DNA of 64,000 nucleotides from assembly GCA_964447005.1 (NCBI GenBank), contig CAYUQP010000006.1, positions 13,640 through 77,639 of the forward strand. Reading direction: 5' to 3'. Within the stretch, counting starts at the first letter, position 1, and every line of letters begins with the position of its first letter. This document shows positions 13,204-63,793 of the stretch, piece after piece. The translations under genes were made by a program, and so were the position numbers. The DNA comes from an uncultured Bacteroidales bacterium. GTDB taxonomy: Bacteria > Bacteroidota > Bacteroidia > Bacteroidales > JAGOPY01. The notes beneath the pieces are model-generated. The model made no database searches. It was not told the origin of the DNA and saw only the letters and a program-made list of their open reading frames with translations.

Positions 13204-13695
13204 ATGAAAAAAATGAAAAAGATCGCATTGTTTATGGCTATGATCATTACTTTATCAGCCATCACATTCAGTTGTTCAAAGGATGATAGTCAAGATAAAC
13301 TCAAAGCCGAGTTGGACAGTACGGAAAGTTTGGTACTTAATACCTTCCGGGAAGCTAAGTCGAAAGATGATTCGCTTGCAAAATATGTTGATCCTTACGG
13401 CCAATCCTTAAATCCAACAGTTTTTATGATGGACAGCCTTTATCACATGAACGATTCTCTATGTATTGTATATTATCTGACCTATTGCGAAGAAATGCTG
13501 GATGGTGATAACATGATGGGCGGAAATATGATGGGCGGTGGAATGATGCATGGTAGCGACATGATGGAAACACATACCTTCATGGGTGATACCTCCTTGG
13601 TAAATCAATATTACCGTGAATTGAACATGATCAGGCAGGCACATCCGGCACATCACCCGGTAGAGCCATCAGAACATGAATTACATCATCGTTAA
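13204..13695 (+). CDS. Lipoprotein with a Met/His-rich tract (candidate Cu(I)/Ag(I)-binding)
   Basis: Lipobox TFSC; DNMMGGNMMGGGMMHGSDMMETH and a C-terminal HPAHHPVEPSEHELHH. The TTG at 13168 was rejected in favour of the ATG at 13204. Confidence 0.6.
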   Translation: MKKMKKIALFMAMIITLSAITFSCSKDDSQDKLKAELDSTESLVLNTFREAKSKDDSLAKYVDPYGQSLNPTVFMMDSLYHMNDSLCIVYYLTYCEEMLDGDNMMGGNMMGGGMMHGSDMMETHTFMGDTSLVNQYYRELNMIRQAHPAHHPVEPSEHELHHR

Positions 13696-49802: not shown

Positions 49803-50330
49803 ATGAAAATCACAAAAATTTTGACGGTTGCCACACTGGTCGTCTTCATGGCCGGAATGCTCTCCGCCCAGGATTTCAACTATATCGGGGCCGGAAAATG
49901 CAAGATGTGCCACAACTCTGAAAAAGCCGGATACGCTTACAATATCTGGAAAGAGTCGCTGCACGCAAAAGCGCTGGTATCACTCGGGAACGAAAAATCG
50001 CTTGCCTATGCAAAAGCCAACGGCATTGCCGATCCGACGAAGGACCCAAAATGCCTGAACTGCCATTCCACGTATCACATGGTGCCCAAGGACAATATCG
50101 AGACCCTTCTGCCGACGGAAGGCGTGTCGTGCGAGAGCTGCCATGGCCCGGGAAGCGCTTACAAGACCAACACGATCATGAAAAGTCGCGAACTCTCAAT
50201 GAAGAATGGTCTGATCCTTCCGACCAAGGAAGTTTGTGAAACCTGCCACAACAAGCAGAACCCGTTCTACAAACCCTTCAATTACGAGGAAGCGGTGAAG
50301 AAGATCGCGCATCCGACACCGAAAGTGTAA
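49803..50330 (+). CDS. Periplasmic tetrahaem cytochrome c
   Basis: Signal peptide; four CxxCH motifs (CKMCH, CLNCH, CESCH, CETCH). Confidence 0.85.
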   Translation: MKITKILTVATLVVFMAGMLSAQDFNYIGAGKCKMCHNSEKAGYAYNIWKESLHAKALVSLGNEKSLAYAKANGIADPTKDPKCLNCHSTYHMVPKDNIETLLPTEGVSCESCHGPGSAYKTNTIMKSRELSMKNGLILPTKEVCETCHNKQNPFYKPFNYEEAVKKIAHPTPKV

Positions 50331-50993: not shown

Positions 50994-53639
50994 TTGTCCA
51001 TAATCAATATTCATTCTTTGAGCAAAGAGCCGGACATTATCGACACCCCCCTGATGCGTCAGTATGCTTCCATTAAAGCAAAGTATCCTGATGCCTTATT
51101 ATTGTTCAGGGTCGGGGACTTTTACGAGACCTTCGGGGAAGACGCGGTCAAAACCTCGAAGATCCTCGGGATCGTACTGACCCGACGGGCCAATGGGTCC
51201 GCGTCGTACGTCGAGCTGGCGGGCTTCCCTTACCACGCGCTCGACACCTACCTGCCGAAACTGGTCAGGGCAGGGCAACGGGTAGCCATATGTGATCAGC
51301 TCGAAGATCCCAAGCTGGCTAAAAAGATTGTGAAACGGGGTGTGACCGAACTGGTGACGCCCGGTGTATCGTATAATGATAAAGTCCTGGACCACAAGGA
51401 GAACAATTTCCTTTGCAGCTTACATCTCGGGGAAAAGACTTCCGGCATTGCGTTCCTTGACATCTCCACCGGCGAATTCTACGCCGCCGAGGGTTTGAAT
51501 GAATATATCGACAAGCTGCTCCAGGGATTCAAGCCCAGCGAGGTCGTAGTGCAAAAATCAAAACGGGAACTTTTTCAGCAGCTCTTCGGAAGCAAGTTTT
51601 ACACTTACACTTTTGATGACTGGGTATTCACACGTGAATTTGCCAGCGATATCCTGACAGCGCATTTCGGTACCACTTCACTGAAAGGGTTCGGCGTCGA
51701 TGAAATGCACCATGCCATTATCGCGGCCGGCGGCGCTTTCCATTACCTGGCGGAGACCCACCACGACAAGATCGGGCATATCGTCAAGATTTCCAGGATC
51801 GAAGAGGAGAAGTACGTATGGTTGGACCGCTTTACGATCCGTAACCTGGAACTGGTCAATTCGATCAACGAAAGAGGGAAAACCCTGCTGGATGTTCTCG
51901 ACCGCACCCTGACCCCGATGGGATCGCGCATGATGCGACGTTGGATCGTACTCCCGCTAAAAGAGCGAAAACCCATCGGGGAGCGGCTTGACATCGTGGA
52001 ATACCTGATGCGGCAAGGTGAGCAGGCCGAACAGCTCTCAAAGCAGTTCAAGCTTACCGGTGACCTGGAACGGCTCATTTCCAAGGTGTCCGTTGGACGC
52101 ATCACACCCCGCGAAGTGGTCCAGTTCAAGAGGGCCCTGCATGCCACAGAGGCCATTAAAGATATTTGTGAAAAAACCGGCCATGACGCCCTGAAGAAGA
52201 TCAGCGAGCAGCTTAATCCCTGCAGGATCATCCGCGACCGGATCGGGCAGGAAGTCCAGGACGAGCCTCCGAATGCTGTAAGCAAGGGCGGGGTGATCAA
52301 AAAAGGAGTTTCCCCGGAACTGGACGAACTAAGGGAACTCTTATATTCCGGAAAGGATTACCTGCAAAAGTTGCAGCAGCGTGAAATTGCCCGCACCGGA
52401 ATCAGCTCGCTGAAAGTAGGCTATAACAATATCTTCGGATACTACCTTGAGGTAACCAACGCCCATAAAGATAAAGTACCTGAAGATTGGAACCGCAAGC
52501 AGACCCTGGTCGGTTCCGAGCGGTATATTACGGAAGAGCTGAAAGAGTATGAACAGAAGATACTCGGGGCCGAAGAAAAGATACTGGACCTGGAGAGCCG
52601 CCTGTTCGACGAACTGGTGCAGGGCCTGAGCGACTACATCCGCCCGGTCCAGCTCAATGCCAACTGGATAGCCCATCTCGACTGCCTTAACTCCTTCGCG
52701 GTCATCGCAAGAGAGCATAACTACAAGCGCCCGGAGATCAATGAAGGATTTGAGATCATGATCAGGGAGGGCAGGCACCCGGTGATCGAACTGGAACTGC
52801 CGCTGGGGGAGAAATATATCACCAACGATGTAGAACTGGATCATGAAAAGCAGCAGATCATCATCATCACCGGGCCGAACATGTCAGGGAAATCGGCGCT
52901 GCTGAGGCAGGTCGCCCTGATCGTGCTTATGGCCCAGATGGGGTCGTTTGTACCGGCCGAAGAGGCGAAGATCGGGATGGTCGACAAGATATTCACCCGG
53001 GTTGGCGCCTCTGATAATATATCTTCCGGTGAATCGACGTTCATGGTGGAAATGAACGAAACGGCAAGCATCCTGAACAACATCAGCACCAGAAGCCTGA
53101 TCCTGCTCGATGAGATCGGCCGCGGCACGAGCACTTACGACGGGATATCGATTGCCTGGGCGATTACAGAGTTCCTTCACGAGCACCCGGCCTATCGTCC
53201 TAAAGTGCTGTTTGCCACTCATTATCATGAGCTGAATGAAATGGCCGCCACCCATAAGCGGATCAAAAATTTTCACATTTCAGTAAAAGAGATCGGTAAC
53301 CAGGTGATCTTCCTGCGCAAGCTGAGAAAAGGCGGAAGTGAGCACAGTTTCGGTATCCATGTGGCAAAAATGGCAGGTATGCCGCCAAAAGTCATTGAAA
53401 GGGCCCAGGAGTTGCTAAAACTGTTGGAAAGATCTCACAGTAACGACGAACTGGCCAAGGTGGCCAAAGAGATTGCCAATCCCGGGAAAGACCAGTTCCA
53501 GCTTTCTTTTATTCAACTTGATGATCCTCTTCTTGAACAGATAAAGCAGGATATCCTTCATACGGATATCGACAACCTGACCCCCGTTGAAGCGCTGATG
53601 AAGCTGCATACGATCAGGAAGAGGCTCAGCGGGCAATAA
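50994..53639 (+). CDS. mutS: DNA mismatch repair protein MutS
   Basis: TPLMRQY...[15 protein letters not shown]; GPNMSGKS Walker A; [15 protein letters not shown] start as listed, exact start uncertain. Confidence 0.95.
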
Positions 53640-53697
53640 AAATAAGAAGGTTCAGAACTCCAACGATTAAAGCCGTTGGTTCCAGGTGAGTAACAAT

Positions 53698-53730
53698 AGA
53701 AAACCGACGGCTTTAGTCGTCGGTTTTCTA
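53698..53730. terminator. Bidirectional hairpin terminator aaccgacg-gctttagt-cgtcggtt flanked by an A-run and a T-run
   Basis: 8-bp stem read directly, between the convergent mutS and 53779-56349. Confidence 0.7.
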
Positions 53731-53778
53731 TCTTATGAGACAGCCTCCTGAATTATCAGTTGATATCAAATAATCTGC

Positions 53779-56349
53779 TTATTCCATTACAGGCTGTTCC
53801 TCCTGTGGTGACGAAGGAGGAGATATTGGGGCCGTACCGGAGCAAGGGCCAAGAATGGCCTTGAATTTGTTGCCCTGCCTTGCGTGAAACCCTTCGATCA
53901 GCCTGACCCTGTTACCAGCTTTGTAAGTCACATCTGTTCCGATACCACCGGTAATGATCCTGTCAGCCCGGATACTGTCACTGGCTTCATAATGCTGAAA
54001 TCCAGTGTAATTCGGATTGCTTGGATCATTGTACTGATAGTTAAAATATGCCACCGGGCAATCGGAGTAAAGCGCCGAACGCCAGAATCCCCTGCCGTAA
54101 GTACCGGCTGTTATTACATTGGCTGCTTCATTAATTTCCAGGTCAAATACCATCACGCTGGGCAAGCCGTTCATAAACGGCACCCAGTCGCCAATGTCAT
54201 TATCCCTGTAATAGATACCGACATCCGTACCGATATACAAAGCATCATCGGGAGCACCATTATTATCTTCATAGGCGATACAGTTCACCGGGAGATTGGG
54301 AAGGCTGCCGGAAATGTTTGTCCATGTATCGCCTCCGTTACTCGACCTGTAAACTTTCTGACCTGAAGAATAACCTCCGAATGTAATGAAAACATCCAGT
54401 GAATTATCCGGGTTCACCGCGATAAAGGTAATGGATCCGCCAGGCAGGCCGGAAGAAACGGTAGTAAATGTCGACCCGCCATCATCAGACCTGTATATGG
54501 TATTGGTCCCTCCGATAGAAGCATAAACCCTGTTGGTATTACTAGTACCGATGGCCATTGCGCCGGTTCCGCTGTAGCCTATATTTGTCCATGAACTGCC
54601 GCCATTCGTACTTTTATAAATATCAGAATACCCTGCATAAATGATGGATGAATTGGATGGGTTCATGATGAGGGGTGTCACCCATGGGCCGGAATCGACA
54701 AGCGGGGCAATAAAAGAATAAGAAGCACCGCCATTGGTCGACTTGTAAATATTACCGAACTGGATACAGTTGTACAGTACGTTGGAATTACCGTGATCAA
54801 TCATGCAATCCATACCGTCGGCGCCCAGCACGTGCAGCATGGTCGTGCCCCCGGTCCACTTATTGGAGCCATTGTCCTGAGTGCCATTGGTTATAAGGTC
54901 CACATTGGGCTCATAGCCTGCGATCCGGTACGACTGGGTGATGGCCAGGCCATTGGAAAGGTCTGTCCAGTCGGCACCAAAGTTAGTGGACCGGAAAAAA
55001 CCACCGTCGCTTCCACAATAGACATAGTTATTGAGCGGATTGATTTCCAGTGCATGGATGTCTGCATGGGTATAATCCGAACCAGGAGGATTATTCCACA
55101 TTGAACTCAGCGACCAGTTTGCCCCCCAATTGGAGGAACTCCAGCAATTGATCCCCCCGGTAATAACATCAGCCACATCAGTTCTGGATACAACCAGTGC
55201 GTGGTCATAGGTAGTCTGATCATCGTCATCAGCCCCGGTGGAACTGTATCCGAGAATATTCGGTGTGGTCGACCTGGTGGAAAATGTCGAGCCGCTGCTG
55301 GTGGAAAGGTACATCCCAACAAAAGTCCCGTCACTGTATGATGGACCAGCGAACAGATACACATAGGCGGAATTATTCGGAGATACACCAATTGCCATCC
55401 GGGTGGCACTGGTTGGCACACCAGATGTGATTTCCGTCCAGTTATCCCCGGAATCCGTAGATCTGAAGAACTCTGTGCCCGCGCATGCATACATGATTGT
55501 CGGATCACCGGGTTTGAACTCAATATCGTGGTAATTTCCACCGGCACTGTGAACAATCGTCCAGGAAGAACCTGAATTGGTCGTTTTATGAATTCCATCT
55601 ACGGAAACGACAAACAGCGTCGAAGACACGGTCGGGTGCATAATGATCTTGTAGGCCCTTTTGTTCTGGGTTGCATCCCAGGTAAGACCGGTTGGATACC
55701 AAGTCACCCCGCCATCCGTCGTTTTCATGACACCGATCGAAGGGACATCACCCCCATCTCCATCGCCTGTGAGCAAGTACATGATATTGGTATTGTTATA
55801 GTTCACGGCCAGGCCGGATACACCAATCCGGGGCATACCGTCAGTGAGTGGAGTCCATGACGTACCTCCGCTGGTGGTTTTCCATAAGCCACCAGCAGGT
55901 GTTCCAACCCAGATTATACTTGCATTGCTAGGATGGAAAGTAATGCAGTTAACTCTGCCAATACCACCATTCCATCCGTTACCATCCACAAAGTACTCAG
56001 GCCCTTCCGACTGCCAGTATCCGTAAGTTGTCATAATGTCACGGGATCCATAGTTGCCCATATAAGCGGAGTGCTCTTCAAAATTCTTTGCAGCATAGTT
56101 TATGATCTTTCCATCAGGAGACAAACGGTTCATTTGCAGGTATTCCCATCGTTTATATTGTTTGTATCCTGACCCGCGCTTGAATTTGTCGATCGTGGAA
56201 AAATAGTCTTCAGCATTTTGCTGGATTGTGGCAAAGTCATCGGTTTCCGGATTCATCCAGATATCCCATGGATTTTGTTCCTGTCCAATGAGAGATCCAC
56301 AAATAAGAATGCCGAAAACGAACGCTATGATGAATTTTAACTTTTTCAT
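53779..56349 (-). CDS. Secreted BNR/Asp-box (sortilin/Ycf48-like) beta-propeller protein with a C-terminal coathanger-stack-like domain (cassette copy A)
   Basis: Signal peptide; repeated S/T-x-D-x-G-x-T/S-W motifs (TTSGGTSWT, TTDGGVTWY, STDSGDNWT, STNGGSSWT, SDDGGSTFT, SSNGGDTWT); tail ...VTYKAGNRVRLIEGFHARQGNKFKAILGPC. Confidence 0.85.
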   Translation of the reverse strand: MKKLKFIIAFVFGILICGSLIGQEQNPWDIWMNPETDDFATIQQNAEDYFSTIDKFKRGSGYKQYKRWEYLQMNRLSPDGKIINYAAKNFEEHSAYMGNYGSRDIMTTYGYWQSEGPEYFVDGNGWNGGIGRVNCITFHPSNASIIWVGTPAGGLWKTTSGGTSWTPLTDGMPRIGVSGLAVNYNNTNIMYLLTGDGDGGDVPSIGVMKTTDGGVTWYPTGLTWDATQNKRAYKIIMHPTVSSTLFVVSVDGIHKTTNSGSSWTIVHSAGGNYHDIEFKPGDPTIMYACAGTEFFRSTDSGDNWTEITSGVPTSATRMAIGVSPNNSAYVYLFAGPSYSDGTFVGMYLSTSSGSTFSTRSTTPNILGYSSTGADDDDQTTYDHALVVSRTDVADVITGGINCWSSSNWGANWSLSSMWNNPPGSDYTHADIHALEINPLNNYVYCGSDGGFFRSTNFGADWTDLSNGLAITQSYRIAGYEPNVDLITNGTQDNGSNKWTGGTTMLHVLGADGMDCMIDHGNSNVLYNCIQFGNIYKSTNGGASYSFIAPLVDSGPWVTPLIMNPSNSSIIYAGYSDIYKSTNGGSSWTNIGYSGTGAMAIGTSNTNRVYASIGGTNTIYRSDDGGSTFTTVSSGLPGGSITFIAVNPDNSLDVFITFGGYSSGQKVYRSSNGGDTWTNISGSLPNLPVNCIAYEDNNGAPDDALYIGTDVGIYYRDNDIGDWVPFMNGLPSVMVFDLEINEAANVITAGTYGRGFWRSALYSDCPVAYFNYQYNDPSNPNYTGFQHYEASDSIRADRIITGGIGTDVTYKAGNRVRLIEGFHARQGNKFKAILGPCSGTAPISPPSSPQEEQPVME

Positions 56350-56369
56350 AATCGTAGTTTAAACATTAA

Positions 56370-56903
56370 TTACCTGTCAGGATTATCTCCGGAAGGTTGC
56401 GCACCTGAGCCTTGAATTTCCCTGTAATTCGGGATATTGCCTGCAACTTCTCCCTCGGGTTGTGCTGTTTCACCCTGCATATTCCGGTAGTCCGGAATTT
56501 TATGACCCATTTCACCGGCGGGCTGATTAAATGCTGCGTCAGAGTGAGATGCAACCTGGGGAGCGGGAGCCGATTTAGAATACACCTTTCCGGTTTCAAG
56601 CCTGGGATCATCTGCATGATCTTCAGCAGGTTTTGCATTGGAATCGCCAAAATCCTTTTCGGTTGGCAGTTCTTTTGGGTCCATCTTAGTATCAACCATT
56701 GAAGCTTCATCAATCTTTGCAGGATTATCCTCCCCGGCAGTTAAAAGGAATGCTCTTTCTTCCGGGCTGAGTTTGGGATCATCCAACGGTACGTTCTCAG
56801 CTGTCTTTTGCCCTGTTGATGATTTTGTCGCTTGTGAATAGGCGCTAAAGGATCCCACCAGCAAAAGAAGTATAATGTATATGTTAAGTCTTTTCATTTT
56901 CAT
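56370..56903 (-). CDS. Secreted Pro/Glu/Asp-rich protein with an (I/T)P(D/N)YR(N/E)(M/I)QG repeat (cassette copy A)
   Basis: Signal peptide; low-complexity acidic/Pro-rich body. The start codon overlaps the upstream stop (TAATG). Confidence 0.6.
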   Translation of the reverse strand: MKMKRLNIYIILLLLVGSFSAYSQATKSSTGQKTAENVPLDDPKLSPEERAFLLTAGEDNPAKIDEASMVDTKMDPKELPTEKDFGDSNAKPAEDHADDPRLETGKVYSKSAPAPQVASHSDAAFNQPAGEMGHKIPDYRNMQGETAQPEGEVAGNIPNYREIQGSGAQPSGDNPDR

Positions 56904-58390
56904 TAATTTTTATTCTTTTTGAGCTTAGCCGTTTCCTTTTCAAGCTTTTCAATTTTGCATACAAGTTCATCTATCAGATCACCCTGGTTATCGATGATTT
57001 TATTTTGTTCGATCGCGTAAAGGGTGAGTTCCTCAACTTTTTCCAGCAGTTTCTTTTGCATATCGCCGAGCAACAGTCCATTTTCTTCAATATGAGCGGC
57101 GGAAGGAACTCCGGGCAGGTGTTTATTCGCCTGGATGCTTTTTTCCACTTCTTCAAGGCTCATGAGTTTGTAATCATCGGCAAATACATAATCCGGCCAG
57201 TTAGTAAGGTCTTCAACGAGAACTTCTTCGCAGGCTACCTTTCCATTGACAGACAAAGAATAACCCGTTGCCTGGGTTGTGGTTCCGATTCTGAGATCAC
57301 TGCTTACATAAGCGTCACCTAAAAAATACCCGGCCCAGTTTGTCGTTCCGCCGGAAGCACTTCCATACACCCCGATGCGGGTACCGGCGCTTCCGGAAGC
57401 TATACCCTGGACACCGTAAACGGTTCCGGAATAGGCACCGCCCTGCCCGCTGCCGATCACACCTCTGTAACCACCGGTAGCCTGTAAACCGATGCCGTAA
57501 CCGTCTGCAGGAACTGAAGAGGCCAACATGGCATAAGTATCGCTATTAACTGTATGGTTGACCTGAGCCTTGAAAAGAACCGCGGTGTAATCCGGAGCTT
57601 CGGTTGAACTGGGATGGCCATTTACTTCAACACGTCCATCAAATTTTCCTGCAAAATTTTGATTGGCAAACTTTGCCACACCATATACACCATAGTTTGT
57701 GTATCCTGAAGTGGTTGCAGCGCCGTCGGCAACAAAAACCCCGCCGTAGTTAGCACTATTTCCTGCATCGGTATTCCATCCGAAAACACCAGCGCCATTA
57801 CCTCCGCTGGTAGCGGTCCTTAGCCCGATGACCCCGACATTCCAGGTATAGACCGGCAGGCCGAAATCAGGTCCGTTAAGCAAGCCCAGAAATCCGGCAG
57901 AATATAAGCTGGAGCCTAATCTGTTCATCCCCTGCACTGCTGCTTTCCCGGCAGTGTAATTGATCACATTCAACCCGTGACCGTCCGGTACATTGTGCCG
58001 CATAGCGATCTTGCCGTCTGCGTCAACATACATTATATTGGCCAGACTGTTTTTCTCAATGTAGATCACATCCAATGCGCTGGCCTGGTCGCGGATTTTG
58101 AACGCACCAGTAGTAGTTGATTTGAATTTCCAGTCGGCAGCACTAAGATCGTCAACCATCTGAAAAGTTGCCCCGCCACCAGCTCCCTGGTTATGGATTT
58201 TAATCGTGGGTTCCCCCATGAATTTCCCTACATGCAGCAATGTGTTGGGTGTCATGTTTCCAATACCCACGTAATCAGGGTTAGAGTTGTATATGTGAGT
58301 GCCGTTTGGTAACCATTGGCTCTTCACATCATTCACGCTAAAAAAAGCGAGCAAAATAAAAATGCCCAAAGTAAATTTTACTGTTTTCAT
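56903..58390 (-). CDS. Secreted Gly-rich beta-helix/tail-fibre-like protein with a C-terminal coiled-coil domain (cassette copy A)
   Basis: Signal peptide; repeats such as GVFGWN..YGGVF..GVYGVA, GIGLQATGGYRGVIGSGQGG; conserved tail VACEEVLVEDLTNWPDYVFADDYKLMSLEEVEKSIQANKHLPGVPSA...EELTLY. Confidence 0.7.
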   Translation of the reverse strand: MKTVKFTLGIFILLAFFSVNDVKSQWLPNGTHIYNSNPDYVGIGNMTPNTLLHVGKFMGEPTIKIHNQGAGGGATFQMVDDLSAADWKFKSTTTGAFKIRDQASALDVIYIEKNSLANIMYVDADGKIAMRHNVPDGHGLNVINYTAGKAAVQGMNRLGSSLYSAGFLGLLNGPDFGLPVYTWNVGVIGLRTATSGGNGAGVFGWNTDAGNSANYGGVFVADGAATTSGYTNYGVYGVAKFANQNFAGKFDGRVEVNGHPSSTEAPDYTAVLFKAQVNHTVNSDTYAMLASSVPADGYGIGLQATGGYRGVIGSGQGGAYSGTVYGVQGIASGSAGTRIGVYGSASGGTTNWAGYFLGDAYVSSDLRIGTTTQATGYSLSVNGKVACEEVLVEDLTNWPDYVFADDYKLMSLEEVEKSIQANKHLPGVPSAAHIEENGLLLGDMQKKLLEKVEELTLYAIEQNKIIDNQGDLIDELVCKIEKLEKETAKLKKNKN

Positions 58391-58713
58391 AATGATTTGT
58401 TTAGTTTATTATTTATTGATTTTTTAAGTAAAATAATTTCATAAGTTGTGAATTATCGAATTGAAATACTACCTGGCAATTGAAACAGATGATAAAATTA
58501 TACATACACATAGGTGAATGCAATTATTTAACATTTATTTAAGAATTTTCCTGAGAACATGCTAAATCTATCAGAGGGAATGTCAATCAATATAATATTG
58601 AATATCAACGGTTAACCATTGAGAATTTCAAACCTGGTTCGAGGGTGAAACCGTATAGGACTTATTAAGCCGACATATGTGAAAAAAGCTGGAAAAGCTG
58701 TGGGGGTTAAATA

Positions 58714-58879
58714 AGAAGCTGTCTCAAAAGACGGAATTCCTTTATGATAACCATTCAATAGATTCGAACTCCAACGACTAAAGCCGTTGGTTCCGAGTTA
58801 GTGGCAAAATATCAACCGACGGCTTTAGTCGTCGGCGATGTAAAAAAAAGAGGCTGCCCGGACTTTTGAGACAGCCTCT
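58714..58879. mobile_element. 166-bp MITE-like element: 17-bp terminal inverted repeats (agaAgctgtctcaaaag / cttttgagacagcCtct) enclosing the ccaacg.../ccgacg... palindromes. Its right end doubles as the terminator hairpin (58849-58879, U8 on the minus strand) of 58904-61501
   Basis: Inverted repeats read directly. A truncated version lies at 53650-53745. Confidence 0.45.
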
Positions 58880-58903
58880 TCAATATAATAAGTGCACAAC
58901 CTT

Positions 58904-61501
58904 TTATTCGGTACTCATCTTACCCATATAAATTCCGGTTACCGGTCTGAACTCGCCAAGGGCATTTTCGACCGGTGCGGCGCTAGTACATGGACCAAGG
59001 ATGGCTTTGAATTTATTGCCGGCCCTTGCATGGAAACCATCCAACAGTGTAATGCTTCCACCAGATTGATAGGTCACATCTGTTCCTAAACCACCTGTGA
59101 TGATTCGGGTGGAAGTGATGGAAGTGCTGGCTTCCCAATATTGAAATCCTGTATAATTCGGATTGCCGGGATCATTCGCCGGTGTAAGTGTCCAACCCCA
59201 GGGGCAGGCTGAATACAGCAACGAACGCCAGTATCCCCTGCCATAAGTTGCGGCGGTTATATACCCGGAGGTTTCGTTAATCTCCAGGTCGAAGACCATC
59301 ACGTTAGGCATGCCGTTCATAAAGGGCACCCAGTCACCGATTGTATTATCACGGTAATAGACACCGACATCGGTACCAATATAAAGCGCATCATCCGGTG
59401 AACCTCCTGTATCCTGGTAAGCGATACAGTTCACCGGGATATTTGGTAACGAACCGGTAATATTGGTCCATGTTGTGCCGGCAGAGGATGAGCTGAATAC
59501 TTTATTTGCAGCGTTATATCCCGAATAGGTGACAAATACCTCAAATGAATTATTCGGATTCACCGCGATAAAAGTAATCGTACCGGATGGCAGGTCACCT
59601 GTTACATTGCTGAATGTTGCGCCACCATCGTCAGACATGTAAATGGTCCGTGTTCCTTCCACAGAGGCATATAACCGGTCCGGATTGCTGCTGCCTCCAA
59701 GGGCCATGGCCCCTGAACCATCATAACCGAGATTGGTCCAGGAACTGCCCCCATTGGTGCTTTTATAAATATCGTAGCCTCCCCAGTAAAGATAGTTGGT
59801 ATTATTGACCTGCATAAGGCAGGTTGTGATCCATGGGCCGGCATCTGTAAGTGGTGCAATAAACGAGTAGGAAGCGCCTGCGTTAGTAGATTTATGCAAA
59901 TTCCCGAACTGAATATTGTTATAAAAAATATTCTGGTTATTATAGTCGATCATGCAATCCATCCCATCGGCTCCCAGTGTGTGGGTCATTGTAGATCCGC
60001 CAGCCCAGTAATTCGATCCGTTATCCTGCGTTCCGTTGATAAAACGGTTGACATTCGGCTCATAGCCGGCTGTTCGGTATATCTGGGTAATAGCCAGGCC
60101 GTCTGAATAGTCATACCAGTTTTCAGCTAAATCGGTACTTCTGAAGAAGCCCCCGTCACTGCCGCAATACAGATAGTTATTCAACGGATTGATTTCCAGG
60201 GCATGGATATCGGCGTGGGTATAATTAACACCCGGCGTATTATCCCACATGGAAGTTAAGTACCAGCTCGTCCCTCCATTAATTGACTTCCAGGTATTAA
60301 TGCCGCCGATAACAATATCTTCAGCATCTGTCCTGGAAACGGCGATAGCATGGTCATAACCGTTCTGGTCGGCTTGATCGCCTCCAACACTGCTGTATCC
60401 AAGGATATTTGGAGTGGTTGAGCGCGTGGAAAAGCTGGCACCGCTATTCGTGGAGCGATAGGTACCCACATAGGTCCCGTCGGTATAAGATGGACCAGCG
60501 AACAAATAGACATAGGATGAGTTCGCAGGTGTGACCCCGATGGCCATTCTGCCCCCGGTTGTTGGCACCCCGGAAGTGATCTCGGTCCAGGTGTCGCCGG
60601 TATTGGTAGAGCGGAAAAACTCCGTGCCGGCGCATGCGTACATTATAGTTGGATCACCCGGCTTGAATTCAATGTCATGATACAGTCCTCCTGCGGAATG
60701 CACTGTTGTCCAGTCACCGCCGGAATTGGTCGTCTTATGTATCCCGAGGTTGCTCACTACGAACAAGATAGCAGGATTAGTAGGATGCATCAGTATCTTG
60801 AAGCCTCTTTCAAAATCTGTTTCTGCCCAGCTAAGGCCTGTACTGTACCAGGTTACGCCTCCATCGGTGGTTTTAAGTACTCCAATGGACCAGACATCCG
60901 CTCCATCACCATCACCGGTAAGCAAGTACATGATATTGGTATTATTATAGTTGACAGCCAGGCCTGATACGCCTATCCGGGGCATGCCGTCGGTCAGCGG
61001 AGTCCATGATGTACCTCCGGTAGTAGTCTTCCAAAGCCCGCCGGATGGGCACCCCGCCCAGATTATATTTGAATTTGAAGGATGGAAAGTGATGCAGTTC
61101 ACCCTTCCTATTCCTCCGTTCCAGCCATTGCCGTCAACGAAATAATCCGGTCCGAGACCGGTCCAGTAACCGTTCACGGTCAGAATATCCCTGCCACCGC
61201 TCGCGGCGATGTAATCGTTATAAACCTGGAAGTTTTTTGCTGAATAGTTCTGTACCTTGCCATCAGCCGTGAGGCGGTGCCGCTGGATATATTCATAGCG
61301 TTTCCATTGTTTATAGCCGGAACCGCGGGCAAATTTATCCTTATCAGCAAAGTAGTTCTCAACATTCTGTTGTATAGCAGAAAAATCATCGGTTTCAGGA
61401 TTCATCCAAAGATCGAATGGGTTTTCCTGTCCCATGAGATACCCACAAGCAAGAATGCCGAAAACAAACGTTATTATAGACTTTATCTTTTTCATAATCA
61501 T
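58904..61501 (-). CDS. Secreted BNR/Asp-box beta-propeller protein, paralog of 53779-56349 (cassette copy B)
   Basis: Collinear with copy A along its whole length, with long identical stretches (e.g. GNGWNGGIGRVNCITFHPSN, TSWTPLTDGMPRIGVSGLAVNYNNTNIMYLLTGDGDG). Confidence 0.85.
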   Translation of the reverse strand: MIMKKIKSIITFVFGILACGYLMGQENPFDLWMNPETDDFSAIQQNVENYFADKDKFARGSGYKQWKRYEYIQRHRLTADGKVQNYSAKNFQVYNDYIAASGGRDILTVNGYWTGLGPDYFVDGNGWNGGIGRVNCITFHPSNSNIIWAGCPSGGLWKTTTGGTSWTPLTDGMPRIGVSGLAVNYNNTNIMYLLTGDGDGADVWSIGVLKTTDGGVTWYSTGLSWAETDFERGFKILMHPTNPAILFVVSNLGIHKTTNSGGDWTTVHSAGGLYHDIEFKPGDPTIMYACAGTEFFRSTNTGDTWTEITSGVPTTGGRMAIGVTPANSSYVYLFAGPSYTDGTYVGTYRSTNSGASFSTRSTTPNILGYSSVGGDQADQNGYDHAIAVSRTDAEDIVIGGINTWKSINGGTSWYLTSMWDNTPGVNYTHADIHALEINPLNNYLYCGSDGGFFRSTDLAENWYDYSDGLAITQIYRTAGYEPNVNRFINGTQDNGSNYWAGGSTMTHTLGADGMDCMIDYNNQNIFYNNIQFGNLHKSTNAGASYSFIAPLTDAGPWITTCLMQVNNTNYLYWGGYDIYKSTNGGSSWTNLGYDGSGAMALGGSSNPDRLYASVEGTRTIYMSDDGGATFSNVTGDLPSGTITFIAVNPNNSFEVFVTYSGYNAANKVFSSSSAGTTWTNITGSLPNIPVNCIAYQDTGGSPDDALYIGTDVGVYYRDNTIGDWVPFMNGMPNVMVFDLEINETSGYITAATYGRGYWRSLLYSACPWGWTLTPANDPGNPNYTGFQYWEASTSITSTRIITGGLGTDVTYQSGGSITLLDGFHARAGNKFKAILGPCTSAAPVENALGEFRPVTGIYMGKMSTE

Positions 61502-61515
61502 TGTTTTAGCATTAG

Positions 61516-62046
61516 TTACTTGTTGGGTATGTCACCAGGGGGTTGAGTGTCCGGGCCTTGTATTTCCCTGTAATTCGGAGTATTTTCCGGAATTTCTCCC
61601 GGGGGCTGTGTTCCTCCTTCGGAGGGCAGATTCCGGTAATCATGCAGTACGCCTGCCTGTTCACCGGGTGGCTGGTTATTACCTCCTGCATCACGAACGA
61701 CAGGTTCACTTGCGGGTTGAACCTTTTTCCCGGATCCCTCTTCCAGAAGTTTCGGATCAGGTTCCACCTCAACCGCTTTGGCATTGGCTTCACCATAATC
61801 ATCCTCAGTAGGTAATTTTTCAGGATCCATCCTTGGATCAACAGGGAGTTGTGCATCAATCTTAGCAGGATTATCTTCTCCTGCAGTCAGTCGCAGGGCA
61901 TTTTCCTCCGGACTGAGTTTGGGGTCTTCCGGCAGTGTGGCTTTGGGATTATCTTCAGTCTTAGCACGCTGAAGATCCTGGGAATAAGCAAAATTAAGGC
62001 CAAACAGCAAAAGAAGAACAATGTATAATATATATTTTTTCATCAT
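61516..62046 (-). CDS. Secreted Pro/Glu-rich protein, paralog of 56370-56903 (cassette copy B)
   Basis: Same architecture, with shared LTAGEDNPAKID and NYREIQG motifs. Confidence 0.6.
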   Translation of the reverse strand: MMKKYILYIVLLLLFGLNFAYSQDLQRAKTEDNPKATLPEDPKLSPEENALRLTAGEDNPAKIDAQLPVDPRMDPEKLPTEDDYGEANAKAVEVEPDPKLLEEGSGKKVQPASEPVVRDAGGNNQPPGEQAGVLHDYRNLPSEGGTQPPGEIPENTPNYREIQGPDTQPPGDIPNK

Positions 62047-62070
62047 TCAGTAATTTTCTGGTTATAACTA

Positions 62071-63576
62071 TTACCTGCTGTGTTTCCTGAGCTTTGCATT
62101 CTCTTTTTCAAGCCTCTCCATTTTATCCTGGAGTTCTTTGATCATTTTATCTTGCTTGATTGTATAAAGGGTAAGTTCTTCAACTTTTTCCATTATTCTT
62201 TTTTGCATGTCACCGAGCATCAGGCCGTTTTCTTCGACTTCTGCTGCAGAAGGCAAGCCGGGAAGATGCTTGTTTTTCTGAATGCTTTTTTCCAGTTCTT
62301 CCAGGCTCATCAGGTCATAATCTTCGGCAAAAACATAATCAGGCCAGCTGGCGAGATCTTCAACGAGCACTTCTTCACAAGCAACCTTACCATTGACCGA
62401 TAAAGCGTACCCGGTGGCCTGGGTTGTGGTGGCAATCCTCAGGTCGCTGCTCACATAGCAATCACCCGAGAAATAGCCAGCCCAGTTATTGGTGGCGCTG
62501 GAGGCCGTTCCATAAACACCGATAGCATTCGTTCCACCCGGATTGTATCCATATCCATAGACTCCGTAACGGGTACCTGCGGTTCCCTCACAATATCCAT
62601 AAACACCAATAACTGTTCCTGTATAATCCGTTCCATTCCCATAACCGTAAACACCCCTGTATCCTCCTGTTCCATAAACGCCGTATCCATAACCCGGCGT
62701 GGGTACTGAGACTCCTTCAACAGCCCTGGTATCAGTACTAGTCGAATGATTAACGGTTGATTTAAACACTGTAGCCGTGTAATCCGTAGCATCGGTTGAA
62801 GTGGCGTGGCCGTCCACTTCTACTCTTCCAATAAATTTACCTGCAAAATTGAGATTGGCAGACTTTGCCTGGCTATAAACTCCATAGTTGGTATAACCTG
62901 AGGTAGTTGCGGCACCGTCAGAAATAAACAAACCTCCGTAATTATTGAGATTATCGTCGTAATTCCATCCGTAAACACTAGCTCCGTTTGCACCTGCATT
63001 GGGTTTTAATCCCAGGACGCCGATATTGGTCACGGATAAAGGCAAACCCATAGCTCCTGCGGGCAGGACACCAAGCATACCGATGGAGTAAGTACCGCTG
63101 ATATTCTGGTTCAGTCCCTGCACAGCCGCTTTCCCTGTGGTGTAATTAAGAACATTCAGGCCATGGCCATCAGGAAAATTATGCCTCATGGCAATTTGGC
63201 CAAAGGCATCCACATACATTACGTTAGCGAGGCTGTTCTTTTCAATGTAAATAACATCCAGTGAACTTGCCTGATCTCGGATCTTAAAAGCGCCGGTAGT
63301 GGTTGACTTGAATTTCCAGTCGGCCGCGCTGAGATCATCGACCATCTGAAAAGTCGCTCCACCGCCTGCTCCCTGGTTATGAATCTTTATAGTTGGTTCA
63401 CCCATGAATTTACCAACATGGAGTAAGGTGGTAGGAGCCATGTTTCCAATTCCGACATAGTCGGGATTAGTGTTGTAAATGTGAGTGCCATTGGGTGCCC
63501 ATTGAGCCAGGGCATCATTCAGGCTGAAAAAGGCACAAAATAGCATTGTGCACATTGCAATTTTAAATGTTTTCAT
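62071..63576 (-). CDS. Secreted Gly-rich tail-fibre-like protein, paralog of 56903-58390 (cassette copy B)
   Basis: The N-terminal ~130 aa and C-terminal ~120 aa are nearly collinear with copy A. The central Gly-rich repeats diverge. Confidence 0.7.
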   Translation of the reverse strand: MKTFKIAMCTMLFCAFFSLNDALAQWAPNGTHIYNTNPDYVGIGNMAPTTLLHVGKFMGEPTIKIHNQGAGGGATFQMVDDLSAADWKFKSTTTGAFKIRDQASSLDVIYIEKNSLANVMYVDAFGQIAMRHNFPDGHGLNVLNYTTGKAAVQGLNQNISGTYSIGMLGVLPAGAMGLPLSVTNIGVLGLKPNAGANGASVYGWNYDDNLNNYGGLFISDGAATTSGYTNYGVYSQAKSANLNFAGKFIGRVEVDGHATSTDATDYTATVFKSTVNHSTSTDTRAVEGVSVPTPGYGYGVYGTGGYRGVYGYGNGTDYTGTVIGVYGYCEGTAGTRYGVYGYGYNPGGTNAIGVYGTASSATNNWAGYFSGDCYVSSDLRIATTTQATGYALSVNGKVACEEVLVEDLASWPDYVFAEDYDLMSLEELEKSIQKNKHLPGLPSAAEVEENGLMLGDMQKRIMEKVEELTLYTIKQDKMIKELQDKMERLEKENAKLRKHSR

Positions 63577-63793
63577 AATGCTTTTATTAAGTTAAGGATT
63601 AAGGTTGTTTGATTAAATATTTATGAATGATTGAGAAAAATTTCGGATATTAAGTTAATAATAGAATATGATTCCAAATTTAGCTATTTTATCCGTTAAT
63701 GTCAAGTATTTCCCAGACAATAATTGATTTTTATGAGAATTTATGAGAAAAAAGTCCCGCTCTGACCGGTAAGATTACAAGCATTGACAATAT

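Follow-up and report, generated by a model that had tools for sequence, protein, structure and literature searches.

A tandemly duplicated cassette for a fiber-like protein, a small acidic protein, and a beta-propeller protein in an uncultured Bacteroidales bacterium

As described by Caulton et al., the mosaic adhesive trimer (MAT) fibers of Bdellovibrio bacteriovorus (Bd2133, Bd2439, Bd3182, and others) have a conserved, beta-rich N-terminal domain of about 130 amino acids (aa) directly after the signal peptide, and a capping-loop motif, V-G-G/N-pi-x-x-P-x-x-x-L, is a hallmark common to MAT and S74-type phage fibers (Caulton et al. 2024, PMC10769870). We examined a 64,000-nucleotide (nt) stretch of contig CAYUQP010000006.1 from an uncultured Bacteroidales bacterium (assembly GCA_964447005.1, contig positions 13,640 to 77,639; “the window”), in which two copies of a three-gene cassette encode a fiber-like protein (g1), a small acidic protein (g2), and a beta-propeller protein (g3). 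Our preferred reading, which we hold at about even confidence and partly by analogy, is that each cassette would supply an exported trimeric fiber that acts with its partner proteins in cell-surface adhesion.

Fibers with interchangeable ends are the means by which Bdellovibrio handles its prey and phages choose their hosts, and the same plan would be at work here in an ordinary member of the Bacteroidales. The locus has two additions that we found described nowhere: its fiber protein ends in an unannotated domain, and its fiber gene has a gene for a large BNR propeller as a fixed partner. Tandem duplication as such is unremarkable; what makes the locus of interest is how large the unannotated family is and that fiber and propeller form a conserved pair.

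Two ancient copies of a three-gene cassette

The list of open reading frames (ORFs) places two collinear cassettes head to tail on the minus strand, A at 58390-53779 and B at 63576-58904, and all six genes were located where an earlier note, made from the sequence alone, had put them.

56903-58390, minus strand: A1, the g1 fiber protein of cassette A, 495 aa
56370-56903, minus strand: A2, the g2 small protein of cassette A, 177 aa
53779-56349, minus strand: A3, the g3 propeller protein of cassette A, 856 aa
62071-63576, minus strand: B1, the g1 fiber protein of cassette B, 501 aa
61516-62046, minus strand: B2, the g2 small protein of cassette B, 176 aa
58904-61501, minus strand: B3, the g3 propeller protein of cassette B, 865 aa

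The TAATG overlap of the A1 stop and A2 start codons, noted before for copy A, is real; copy B instead has a 24-nt gap between B1 and B2. From B3 to A1 there are 513 nt of noncoding DNA, and neither window cassette has a fourth gene. Read by eye, each of the six products starts with a signal peptide and has Gln right after it. This fits the “Q-rule” pattern of signal peptidase I substrates in Bacteroidota. The closest genome relatives are uncultured Bacteroidales metagenome-assembled genomes (MAGs), and the source contig is also on record in a Joint Genome Institute (JGI) environmental metagenome, sample 3300010356.

The paralogs align over their full length at all three genes, which bears out the tandem duplication of the whole cassette. 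Protein identity is 69.1% for g1, 47.7% for g2, and 70.6% for g3 (BLASTP E values of 0, 8e-41, and 0), so that the earlier estimate of about three-quarters slightly overstates g1 and g3 and clearly overstates g2. At the nucleotide level, about 4.4 kb align at 69-72% identity, and the repeats are spaced 5146-5192 nt apart. Along g1, identity falls from 95-97% at residues 31-120 to 50-64% at residues 150-330 and rises again to 78-83% in the C-terminal part; the ends are thus the most conserved and the center the most divergent, as had been seen by eye.

That pattern had been taken to suggest diversification of the Gly-rich center. However, the ratio of nonsynonymous to synonymous substitution rates (omega) is 0.08-0.23 there, and synonymous sites between A and B are saturated, with dS not estimable, or 1-3, in nearly all 60-codon windows. 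Omega is 0.03-0.27 wherever it is computable between the paralogs. We considered positive selection on the center and rejected it at omega values of no more than 0.23, although a single saturated pair makes this a weak test. The center appears to be relaxed, that is, less constrained than the ends, and is not demonstrably diversifying.

In a neighbor-joining tree of g3, A3 is sister to one g3 protein of a Bacteroidales MAG locus and B3 is sister to the other (homologous proteins are numbered P and fetched loci L below; this one is L026). Since each window copy has its own ortholog there, the duplication is old and predates the split of the window organism and the L026 MAG. Judged from these comparisons, A and B are ancient paralogs under purifying selection, which would leave the cell with two forms of the apparatus that differ in shaft and propeller surface.

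A mosaic fiber protein and its C-terminal module

We divided g1 into five parts, with the domain borders of B1 carried over from its alignment with A1.

58319-58390, minus strand: A1 signal peptide, aa 1-24
58016-58318, minus strand: A1 N-terminal beta-rich unit (N-unit) with capping loop YVGIGNMTPNTLLHV, aa 25-125
57311-58015, minus strand: A1 Gly-rich variable shaft, aa 126-360
56981-57310, minus strand: A1 degenerate capping loop LRIGTTTQATGYSLSV and C-terminal module (C-module; VACEEVLVED..WPDYVF..HLPGVPSA..EKVEELTLY), aa 361-470
56906-56980, minus strand: A1 helical tail, aa 471-495
63505-63576, minus strand: B1 signal peptide, aa 1-24
63202-63504, minus strand: B1 N-terminal beta-rich unit with capping-loop motif VGIGNMAPTTL, aa 25-125
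62479-63201, minus strand: B1 Gly/Tyr-rich variable shaft, aa 126-366
62149-62478, minus strand: B1 last capping loop and C-module, aa 367-476
62074-62148, minus strand: B1 C-terminal helix tail, aa 477-501

Among the Pfam, NCBIfam, and PHROG families, none matches g1. In A1, the capping-loop motif lies at aa 40-54, with the degenerate copy at aa 366-381, immediately ahead of the C-module. A profile of the g1 C-terminal region including this last capping loop matched MAT crystal structures of B. bacteriovorus, namely, Bd2133 (8OND, E = 1.8e-5), 8OML, and Bd2439 (8OL4), with the alignment on the capping loop GNVGIGT..P..KL.V.G. The description of g1 as fiber-like, first made by eye, thus finds a counterpart in solved trimeric fibers. 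Strands were predicted, at low confidence, for the unit of about 100 aa after the signal peptide, and B1 contains five G-V-Y-G motifs. A search with the N-unit alone returned one fragment and was uninformative.

Relatives of g1 swap N-units, shafts, and end domains. In P0254, the g1 N-unit (55-58% identical) is joined to repeats that resemble a YadA head by eye and to Peptidase_S74 (E = 2.4e-12), and in P0260 it is joined to Fib_succ_major (E = 4e-39). In P0127 and P0133, two or three N-units precede the C-module. A g1-like shaft is combined with collagen repeats and S74 in P0249, while P0197 has collagen repeats and the C-module. Because of this swapping, we regard g1 as a mosaic fiber protein with interchangeable parts.

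Most Bacteroidales homologs outside the close clade (among P0036-P0120) have a different N-terminal domain (QV.IN.DGS.PD.SAMLEVK...KG.L.PRMT). The family on record for distant g1 homologs is PF26696, “PTL_trimer,” on which our literature search found no paper. Judging from which fragments lack it, we infer that PF26696 is an alternative N-terminal domain of these distant homologs (SAMLEV..KG.LPPRMT) that is absent from the window proteins. Close relatives also have short-form cassettes (L003, 15120-21512; L008, 7632-11495; L026, 5849-14075), where a g1 protein of about 330 aa consists of the N-unit and C-module without the Gly-rich shaft and the middle gene encodes a different Pro-rich protein of 120-130 aa. 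Both L026 orthologs of the window g3 copies are paired with such short-form g1 genes.

The C-module belongs to a very large family. A search with g1 as a single protein covered 1.84 billion representatives of 50%-identity clusters and returned 34,663 of them at an E value of ≤1e-3 and 30,504 at ≤1e-10; among the matches listed, nearly all align through the C-terminal region. The consensus reads ..LSVNGKI.CEEV.V....WPDYVF..DY.L.SL.E.E..I..N.HLPG.PSA.EVE..G..LG.MQ..L.EK.EELTLY.I.Q.K and had no match in the Pfam, NCBIfam, or PHROG libraries that we searched. With a profile of this region, the module was found to be almost always terminal (a median of 19 residues follow it) and to be single in 494 of 503 proteins, eight of the others having three in tandem and one having two. 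Elsewhere, C-module proteins carry LRR, collagen, fn3, PKD, and LamG domains upstream. These are typical domains of extracellular adhesins.

The proteins with three C-modules are P0144, P0207, P0153, P0239, P0141, and P0215 and the products of L068 6587-11212 and 11394-17321, with chains of up to 1,975 aa, e.g., in an Ignavibacteria MAG. Three tandem modules in one chain may be a single-chain mimic of a trimer, and their occurrence agrees with the module acting as a three-fold unit. The collagen repeats of some relatives likewise lend indirect support to a trimeric fiber. When the A1 C-module was modeled alone from a 93-sequence alignment, its predicted local distance difference test score (pLDDT) was 90.8, and the model comprised two strands and two helices, all short, and a terminal helix of 54 residues. 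The polar residues with the highest conservation lie in A1 aa 398-430 (about 57101-57199): an Asp (WPD) that is invariant, a Ser (PSA) that is nearly so, and a His (HLP) that is invariant in full-length homologs and at least 90% conserved when the module is sampled more broadly. All three are also retained in the phage variant described below, and they might form an active site.

The module had been likened to the tip of a tail fiber or adhesin. This likeness now seems unlikely to extend to function, as the module stays constant across a family of tens of thousands of clusters with varying N-terminal regions and holds the position of the S74 intramolecular chaperone in relatives. Since the constant part of so huge a family cannot carry specificity, the module is a poor receptor-binding candidate, and a role in folding, trimerization, or docking is more likely than one as a receptor-binding tip. 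We also considered it as a diverged S74 domain, with a motif order that is alike by eye, and rejected this, given an hhalign probability of 6% and no PF13884 match; the positional equivalence is kept. The site equivalent to the SDxxxK Ser-Lys motif reads SSDLRIG in g1, with no Lys at +5. With both the S74 match and this motif absent from the C-module, cleavage of g1 is not expected.

We put forward, tentatively and with less than even confidence, that the C-module is an unrecognized autonomous C-terminal trimerization or folding domain, a functional counterpart of S74, common to exported fibers and to tail fibers of uncultivated Bacteroidota phages, and that with g3 and g2 it forms a widespread undescribed fiber system of Bacteroidota and their relatives. 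Our search of the literature on the C-module motif, the “3-coathanger stack,” and F510_1955 found nothing relevant.

The resemblance to phage proteins has a factual basis. Among the 2.9 million viral contigs of IMG/VR, 27 encode the C-module. Some of these proteins have signal peptides and look bacterial, and others have none. In L105 (3485-8333), the gene right after a baseplate-wedge gene (phrog_219, E = 4.5e-26) encodes a C-module protein of 878 aa that lacks a signal peptide, and in L094, genes for a tail protein and an amidase lie close to one for a C-module protein. L108, L110, and L111 encode long proteins, two with collagen-like N-terminal stretches, that end in a variant of the C-module. 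This phage-type variant, PDYVFEPEY..HLPG.PS..DRDMKLLEKVEELTLY, lacks the Trp and ends long signal-less proteins in L105, L108, L110, and L111. The C-module, like S74, thus appears to be common to cellular fibers and to some uncultivated phage tail fibers, which fits a generic role in folding, trimerization, or docking.

These contexts, along with the capping loop and S74-type fiber architecture, could suggest a prophage remnant, i.e., a domesticated tail-fiber module with assembly proteins left after phage decay, and the earlier note had offered a domesticated phage-derived module as one possibility. The surroundings of the cassettes argue otherwise. A gene for MutS and one for an SpoU methylase lie on one side and a SulP/STAS transporter gene lies on the other, with no phage genes around the locus. 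None of the six proteins matched a PHROG at an E value of 0.01 (the weak matches were all to families of unknown function), and the 50,697 GenBank phage genomes searched by tblastn contained no match to g1, the C-module, or g3. Unlike the phage versions, g1 to g3 all have signal peptides, and the cassette is vertically conserved under purifying selection. Matches are also far more numerous in cells: in a scan of one genome per species, at least 596 loci encode the conserved g1 C-terminal part, compared to the 27 viral loci. We consider a phage remnant very improbable and the least likely of the readings discussed here.

The propeller, the small acidic protein, and the gene neighborhood

The third gene encodes the multi-Asp-box beta-propeller with a conserved C-terminal domain that had been described before, and both copies score above the cutoffs of two models.

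A3: BNR/Sortilin-Vps10-type double beta-propeller with 7 Asp-boxes and a GCX_COOH domain at aa 787-837
B3: BNR/Sortilin-Vps10-type double beta-propeller with a signal peptide, an N-terminal region of about 120 aa, 6 Asp-boxes, and a GCX_COOH domain at aa 790-839

Sortilin-Vps10 (Pfam PF15902, cutoff 33) scored 72.9 bits in A3 and 58.1 bits in B3, and the GCX_COOH “3-coathanger stack” (NCBIfam NF045639, cutoff 26) scored 46.8 and 51.2 bits, respectively. The GCX_COOH domain lies near the C terminus and is followed by a short variable tail. This architecture is kept in nine scanned orthologs from other lineages, eight of which are above the GCX_COOH cutoff, the other (L054) being just below it at 23.8 bits. 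We considered g3 as a lipoprotein because of an “ILAC” in B3 and rejected this, as the Cys is not conserved in orthologs and the Gln after the signal is kept in most, by eye.

Part of A3 resembles structures of xyloglucanases of glycoside hydrolase family 74 (GH74), with PDB 6P2M matched at an E value of 1.6e-14 over aa 127-331 and further similarity of g3 to 6P2L, 5FKQ-5FKT, and 1SQJ. The cassette could accordingly be read as a polysaccharide-degrading unit in which g3 would be an active GH74- or sialidase-like glycosidase, tethered or presented by g1 and g2, in the service of nutrient acquisition and not adhesion. In every lineage tested, g3 also partially matched the F510_1955 glycosylhydrolase model, and the L004 cassette adjoins genes for alpha-amylase, GH57, and GH77. 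However, all scores for that model (NF045728) were 64-130 bits, below the curated 175, and the partial PDB matches may reflect common BNR blades. No SusC/SusD pair or other hallmark of a polysaccharide utilization locus (PUL) lies beside the cassettes in the window, L003, L007, or L012, and a degradative unit would leave the tail-fiber-like architecture of the partner unexplained. We think this reading unlikely, if still worth weighing, and prefer that of a fiber with g3 as its partner.

The second gene has short conserved motifs only.

A2: LSPEERA..LTAGEDNPAKID, then DYRNMQG and NYREIQG..QPSGD
B2: C-terminal DYRNLPS and NYREIQG...QPPGD

No Pfam or NCBIfam family was above threshold for g2. 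Its net charge is -13 in A2 and -16 in B2, the mature part of B2 is 16% Pro, and two D/NYRxhxG motifs lie at the C terminus, all in agreement with the first description of an acidic, Pro-rich protein with NYREIQG-type repeats. From its composition, g2 is probably disordered. In Bacteroidales, a gap of at least 150 nt between g1 and g3 nearly always encodes a g2-type protein of 120-190 aa that has a signal peptide, is rich in Pro, Glu, and Lys, and usually ends in two copies of x-N-Y-R-x-h-x-G-x-x-x-Q-P-x-G-E.

The order of g1 and g3 recurs well beyond the window. Among the 111 assessable C-module genes in the fetched loci, 38 are followed by a g3 ortholog on the same strand within 1.5 kb, and the pairs occur in many species, among them members of the Bacteroidales, Saprospiraceae, Chitinophagaceae, and Lewinellaceae. 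In the last three families, g2 is absent, and the start of g3 is 2-90 nt downstream of g1. One pair of a C-module gene and g3 lies in a MAG labeled Chitinophaga pinensis (L041), and the cultivable carriers of C-module genes include Marinifilum breve, Flavobacterium soyae, and Sphingobacterium paramultivorum. L003 has a cassette with products of 503, 175, and 862 aa followed by two shorter cassettes, and L004 has one of 508, 161, and 856 aa with an additional 494-aa gene. C-modules beside g3 also cluster with one another, as a fraction of 0.74 have a g3-adjacent nearest neighbor, compared to 0.33 ± 0.09 after shuffling, a difference that phylogeny may partly confound.

The functional link between the three genes, which the earlier note had left unassigned, therefore gains support: the synteny recurs across orders, with a g2-type gene in between in Bacteroidales, and a metagenomic protein of 654 aa (P0113) is a g1 homolog extended by a Pro-rich tail that resembles g2 (SPEERA.., ..RRNIQGPQEQPAGE..), with no second signal peptide. 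P0113 is either a natural fusion or an assembly or frameshift artifact; if real, it would be Rosetta-stone evidence for a link between g1 and g2. Taken together, these comparisons argue that the neighborhood is not due to chance and that the genes form a conserved, functionally linked set.

The C-module also occurs in arrays without a g3 neighbor, with eleven in a row in Marinifilum breve (L061, 6167-16394) and others in L074 and L075. On plasmids of Fulvitalea and Persicobacter (NZ_AP025321, CP012864), there are 16-18 matches each, and the array genes of the Fulvitalea plasmid are annotated as LamG-domain or hypothetical.

Some relatives have a fourth gene. In L007, L012, L013, L015, and L016, a protein of about 490 aa is encoded directly after g3 (homologs of the L007 product by phmmer). 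L007 itself has two tandem four-gene cassettes, where the fourth product has a Por_Secre_tail domain (TIGR04183, E = 5.8e-11) of the type IX secretion system (T9SS). The cassette might thus serve a T9SS-dependent gliding or surface adhesin like SprB or RemA, with g1 to g3 as accessories of the T9SS substrate. Among the carriers of the C-module are taxa of the Fibrobacterota-Chlorobiota-Bacteroidota (FCB) group, which are those known to have the T9SS. The window cassettes, however, have no fourth gene, and none of the six proteins matched the T9SS sorting domains TIGR04183 and TIGR04131. The C-module is, moreover, found in Verrucomicrobiota MAGs and on a Leisingera plasmid. Service to a T9SS substrate strikes us as quite improbable, and we retain the reading of a fiber with its own partners.

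Putative control elements lie at both ends of the cassettes.

58760-58885, minus strand: 3' element of cassette B, a hairpin with a 13-bp stem and U8, then a long hairpin of 17+4 bp
53650-53750, minus strand: 3' element of cassette A, with the same long hairpin as cassette B, immediately ahead of the end of the convergent MutS gene
58391-58759, minus strand: AT-rich spacer upstream of A1, with sigma-70-like consensus matches only and no TTTG..TAnnTTTG
63577-63793, minus strand: region upstream of B1, with TTGACA-17-TAAATT(TG) at 63705-63677

The long hairpin of cassette B is CGACGACTAAAGCCGTCGG with its inverted copy (inverted repeats I4 and I11). As RNA, the cassette B element folds at -55.3 kcal/mol (z = -5.27 versus shuffled sequence) and that of cassette A at -43.8 kcal/mol (z = -5.37; repeats D18 and I2). 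One hairpin arm, the 42-nt direct repeat D18, is 86% identical between A and B, against 69-72% for the coding DNA. Within the window, the motif occurs only after A3 and B3, and its 17-mer is also found downstream of a g3 fragment in a related genome (L006). The repeats built on CGACGACTAAAGCCGTCGG are nested inverted repeats that follow both g3 copies (53650-53750 and 58713-58885); after B3, the terminator hairpin precedes the long hairpin, and an outer inverted repeat, GAGGCTGTCTCAAAAG / CTTTTGAGACAGC, flanks them. An Rfam scan of the region gave only subthreshold matches, on these 3' hairpins.

The hairpin with U8 after B3 has the shape of an intrinsic terminator. Because structured 3' elements end the cassettes, A and B look like separate transcription units. 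The spacer upstream of A1 presumably holds the cassette A promoter. Upstream of B1, the second element of the putative promoter reads TAAATTTG and fits TAnnTTTG, the Bacteroidota -7 promoter consensus; the full pattern TTTG..TAnnTTTG had no match in the region.

The longest ORF for MutS (50994-53639, plus strand, TTG start) converges on the end of cassette A; the MutS and A3 stop codons are only about 140 nt apart, and the 3' hairpin takes up the interval. A little past the SpoU and MutS genes, 49803-50330 (plus strand) encodes an exported protein of 175 aa with four CxxCH motifs (CKMCH, CLNCH, CESCH, and CETCH), which suggests a small multiheme cytochrome c.

A proposed mechanism and its comparison with known systems

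From the architecture, the synteny, the MAT fibers, and the phage gene pairs of a fiber and a downstream partner, we derived a model in which each cassette would be one operon for an exported fiber apparatus. In it, g1 would be a Sec-exported modular fiber of the MAT or S74-type beta-helical kind. Its N-unit, which capping-loop motifs bracket and which is almost invariant between the paralogs, probably attaches to a cell-side partner common to both, and the Gly/Tyr-rich shaft that differs between them would follow. The C-module would nucleate and lock trimerization from the C terminus and, because the Ser-Lys protease motif of S74 is absent, may stay attached and serve as a docking site. As the dedicated partner of the fiber, g3 would most likely be a glycan-binding or glycan-cleaving head or else a base that docks the C-module. 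A linker or escort role is proposed for g2, which would bind g1 or g3 through its two NYRxIQG..QPxGE motifs.

Several results weigh against this model. Its main weakness is that we recognized no T9SS C-terminal domain, other outer membrane translocation signal, or conserved lipobox in g1 to g3, and no named homolog was found for any member. The MAT similarity is confined to a short motif. PF13884 matched neither g1 nor any of the 93 C-modules at an E value of ≤1, hhalign of the C-module against the S74 region of P0254 gave only the 6% mentioned above, and Foldseek of the C-module against PDB and BFVD returned nothing at ≤1e-3. The full-length AlphaFold2 monomer of A1, from a 52-sequence alignment, had a pLDDT of 56, too poor for a fold search, and was left unused. 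For the “F510_1955 family glycosylhydrolase” (NF045728), A3 and B3 scored 123 and 95 bits, below the cutoff. Finally, g3 is not adjacent to two-thirds of the C-module genes and is thus not an obligatory partner of the module.

Surface display is assumed here by analogy with the MAT fibers. The proteins could instead form an apparatus inside the envelope, periplasmic or on the inner face of the outer membrane, e.g., a structural tether or assembly factor. This would agree with the finding of Sec signal peptides only, with no T9SS domain or anchor of an autotransporter or trimeric autotransporter adhesin (TAA) detected and no conserved lipobox by eye, and g3 proteins of relatives weakly match the BamI and Ycf48 models of assembly-factor propellers. 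Those scores are, however, far below the cutoffs. The adhesin-type domains on C-module proteins elsewhere, the T9SS-tailed fourth gene in the cassettes of relatives, and the phage versions of the C-module in tail-fiber positions also point outward, and we rate a purely internal apparatus as distinctly unlikely. If the fiber model is true, it would offer an annotation for a very large block of “hypothetical” Bacteroidota proteins and a testable candidate for cell-cell or cell-glycan adhesion in Bacteroidales of anaerobic digesters and sediments. It would also be a second example, besides S74, of a fiber-end module traded between phages and cells.

Four known systems bear comparison with the cassette. 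Like YadA-type autotransporters, g1 would be exported, contains Gly-rich repeats, and is predicted to end in a long helix, which may be part of a coiled coil, and the repeats of its relative P0254 recall a YadA head by eye. It differs in having no beta-barrel anchor and no Pfam YadA or Hep_Hag match, and its chain ends about 25 residues after the C-module. With the Sortilin/Vps10 and GH74 propellers, g3 shares the PF15902 match, the 6-7 Asp-boxes, and local GH74 similarity, whereas its own N-terminal region of about 120 aa, its GCX_COOH domain, its subcutoff glycosidase scores, and its fixed fiber-gene neighbor set it apart.

The S74 tail fibers and tailspikes of phages (K1F endosialidase, the T5 L-shaped tail fiber) and the eukaryotic MyRF resemble g1 in that a capping loop immediately precedes the C-terminal domain and a helix or coiled coil closes that domain. 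P0254 and P0249 pair S74 with the N-unit or shaft seen in g1, and in uncultivated phages, the C-module ends proteins at tail-fiber positions. The C-module nonetheless lacks SDxxxK, a PF13884 match, and a significant fold match, with the low hhalign probability given above. By its sequence, g1 is neither an S74 protein nor T9SS cargo nor a trimeric autotransporter.

The likeness to the MAT fibers extends over several features. The g1 protein has a beta-rich N-unit directly after the signal peptide, a likeness of layout only, since the MAT entries in PDB cover just C-terminal parts. It also has the capping-loop motif through which 8OND was matched, its relatives show mosaic C termini with S74 or unrelated end domains on the same N-terminal part, and there are several paralogs per genome. 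Differences are seen in length (about 500 aa versus about 1,000 aa), in the shaft (Gly/Tyr-rich versus a demonstrated beta-helix), and in the end domain, which in g1 is helical and the conserved part of a huge family, not a variable tip. The host is an uncultured member of the Bacteroidales with no evidence of predation, and g1 is genetically coupled to a BNR propeller and a probably disordered protein, of which the sections of the MAT paper drawn on here make no mention (PMC10769870). With these likenesses and differences set side by side, the MAT superfamily is the closest known system to g1.

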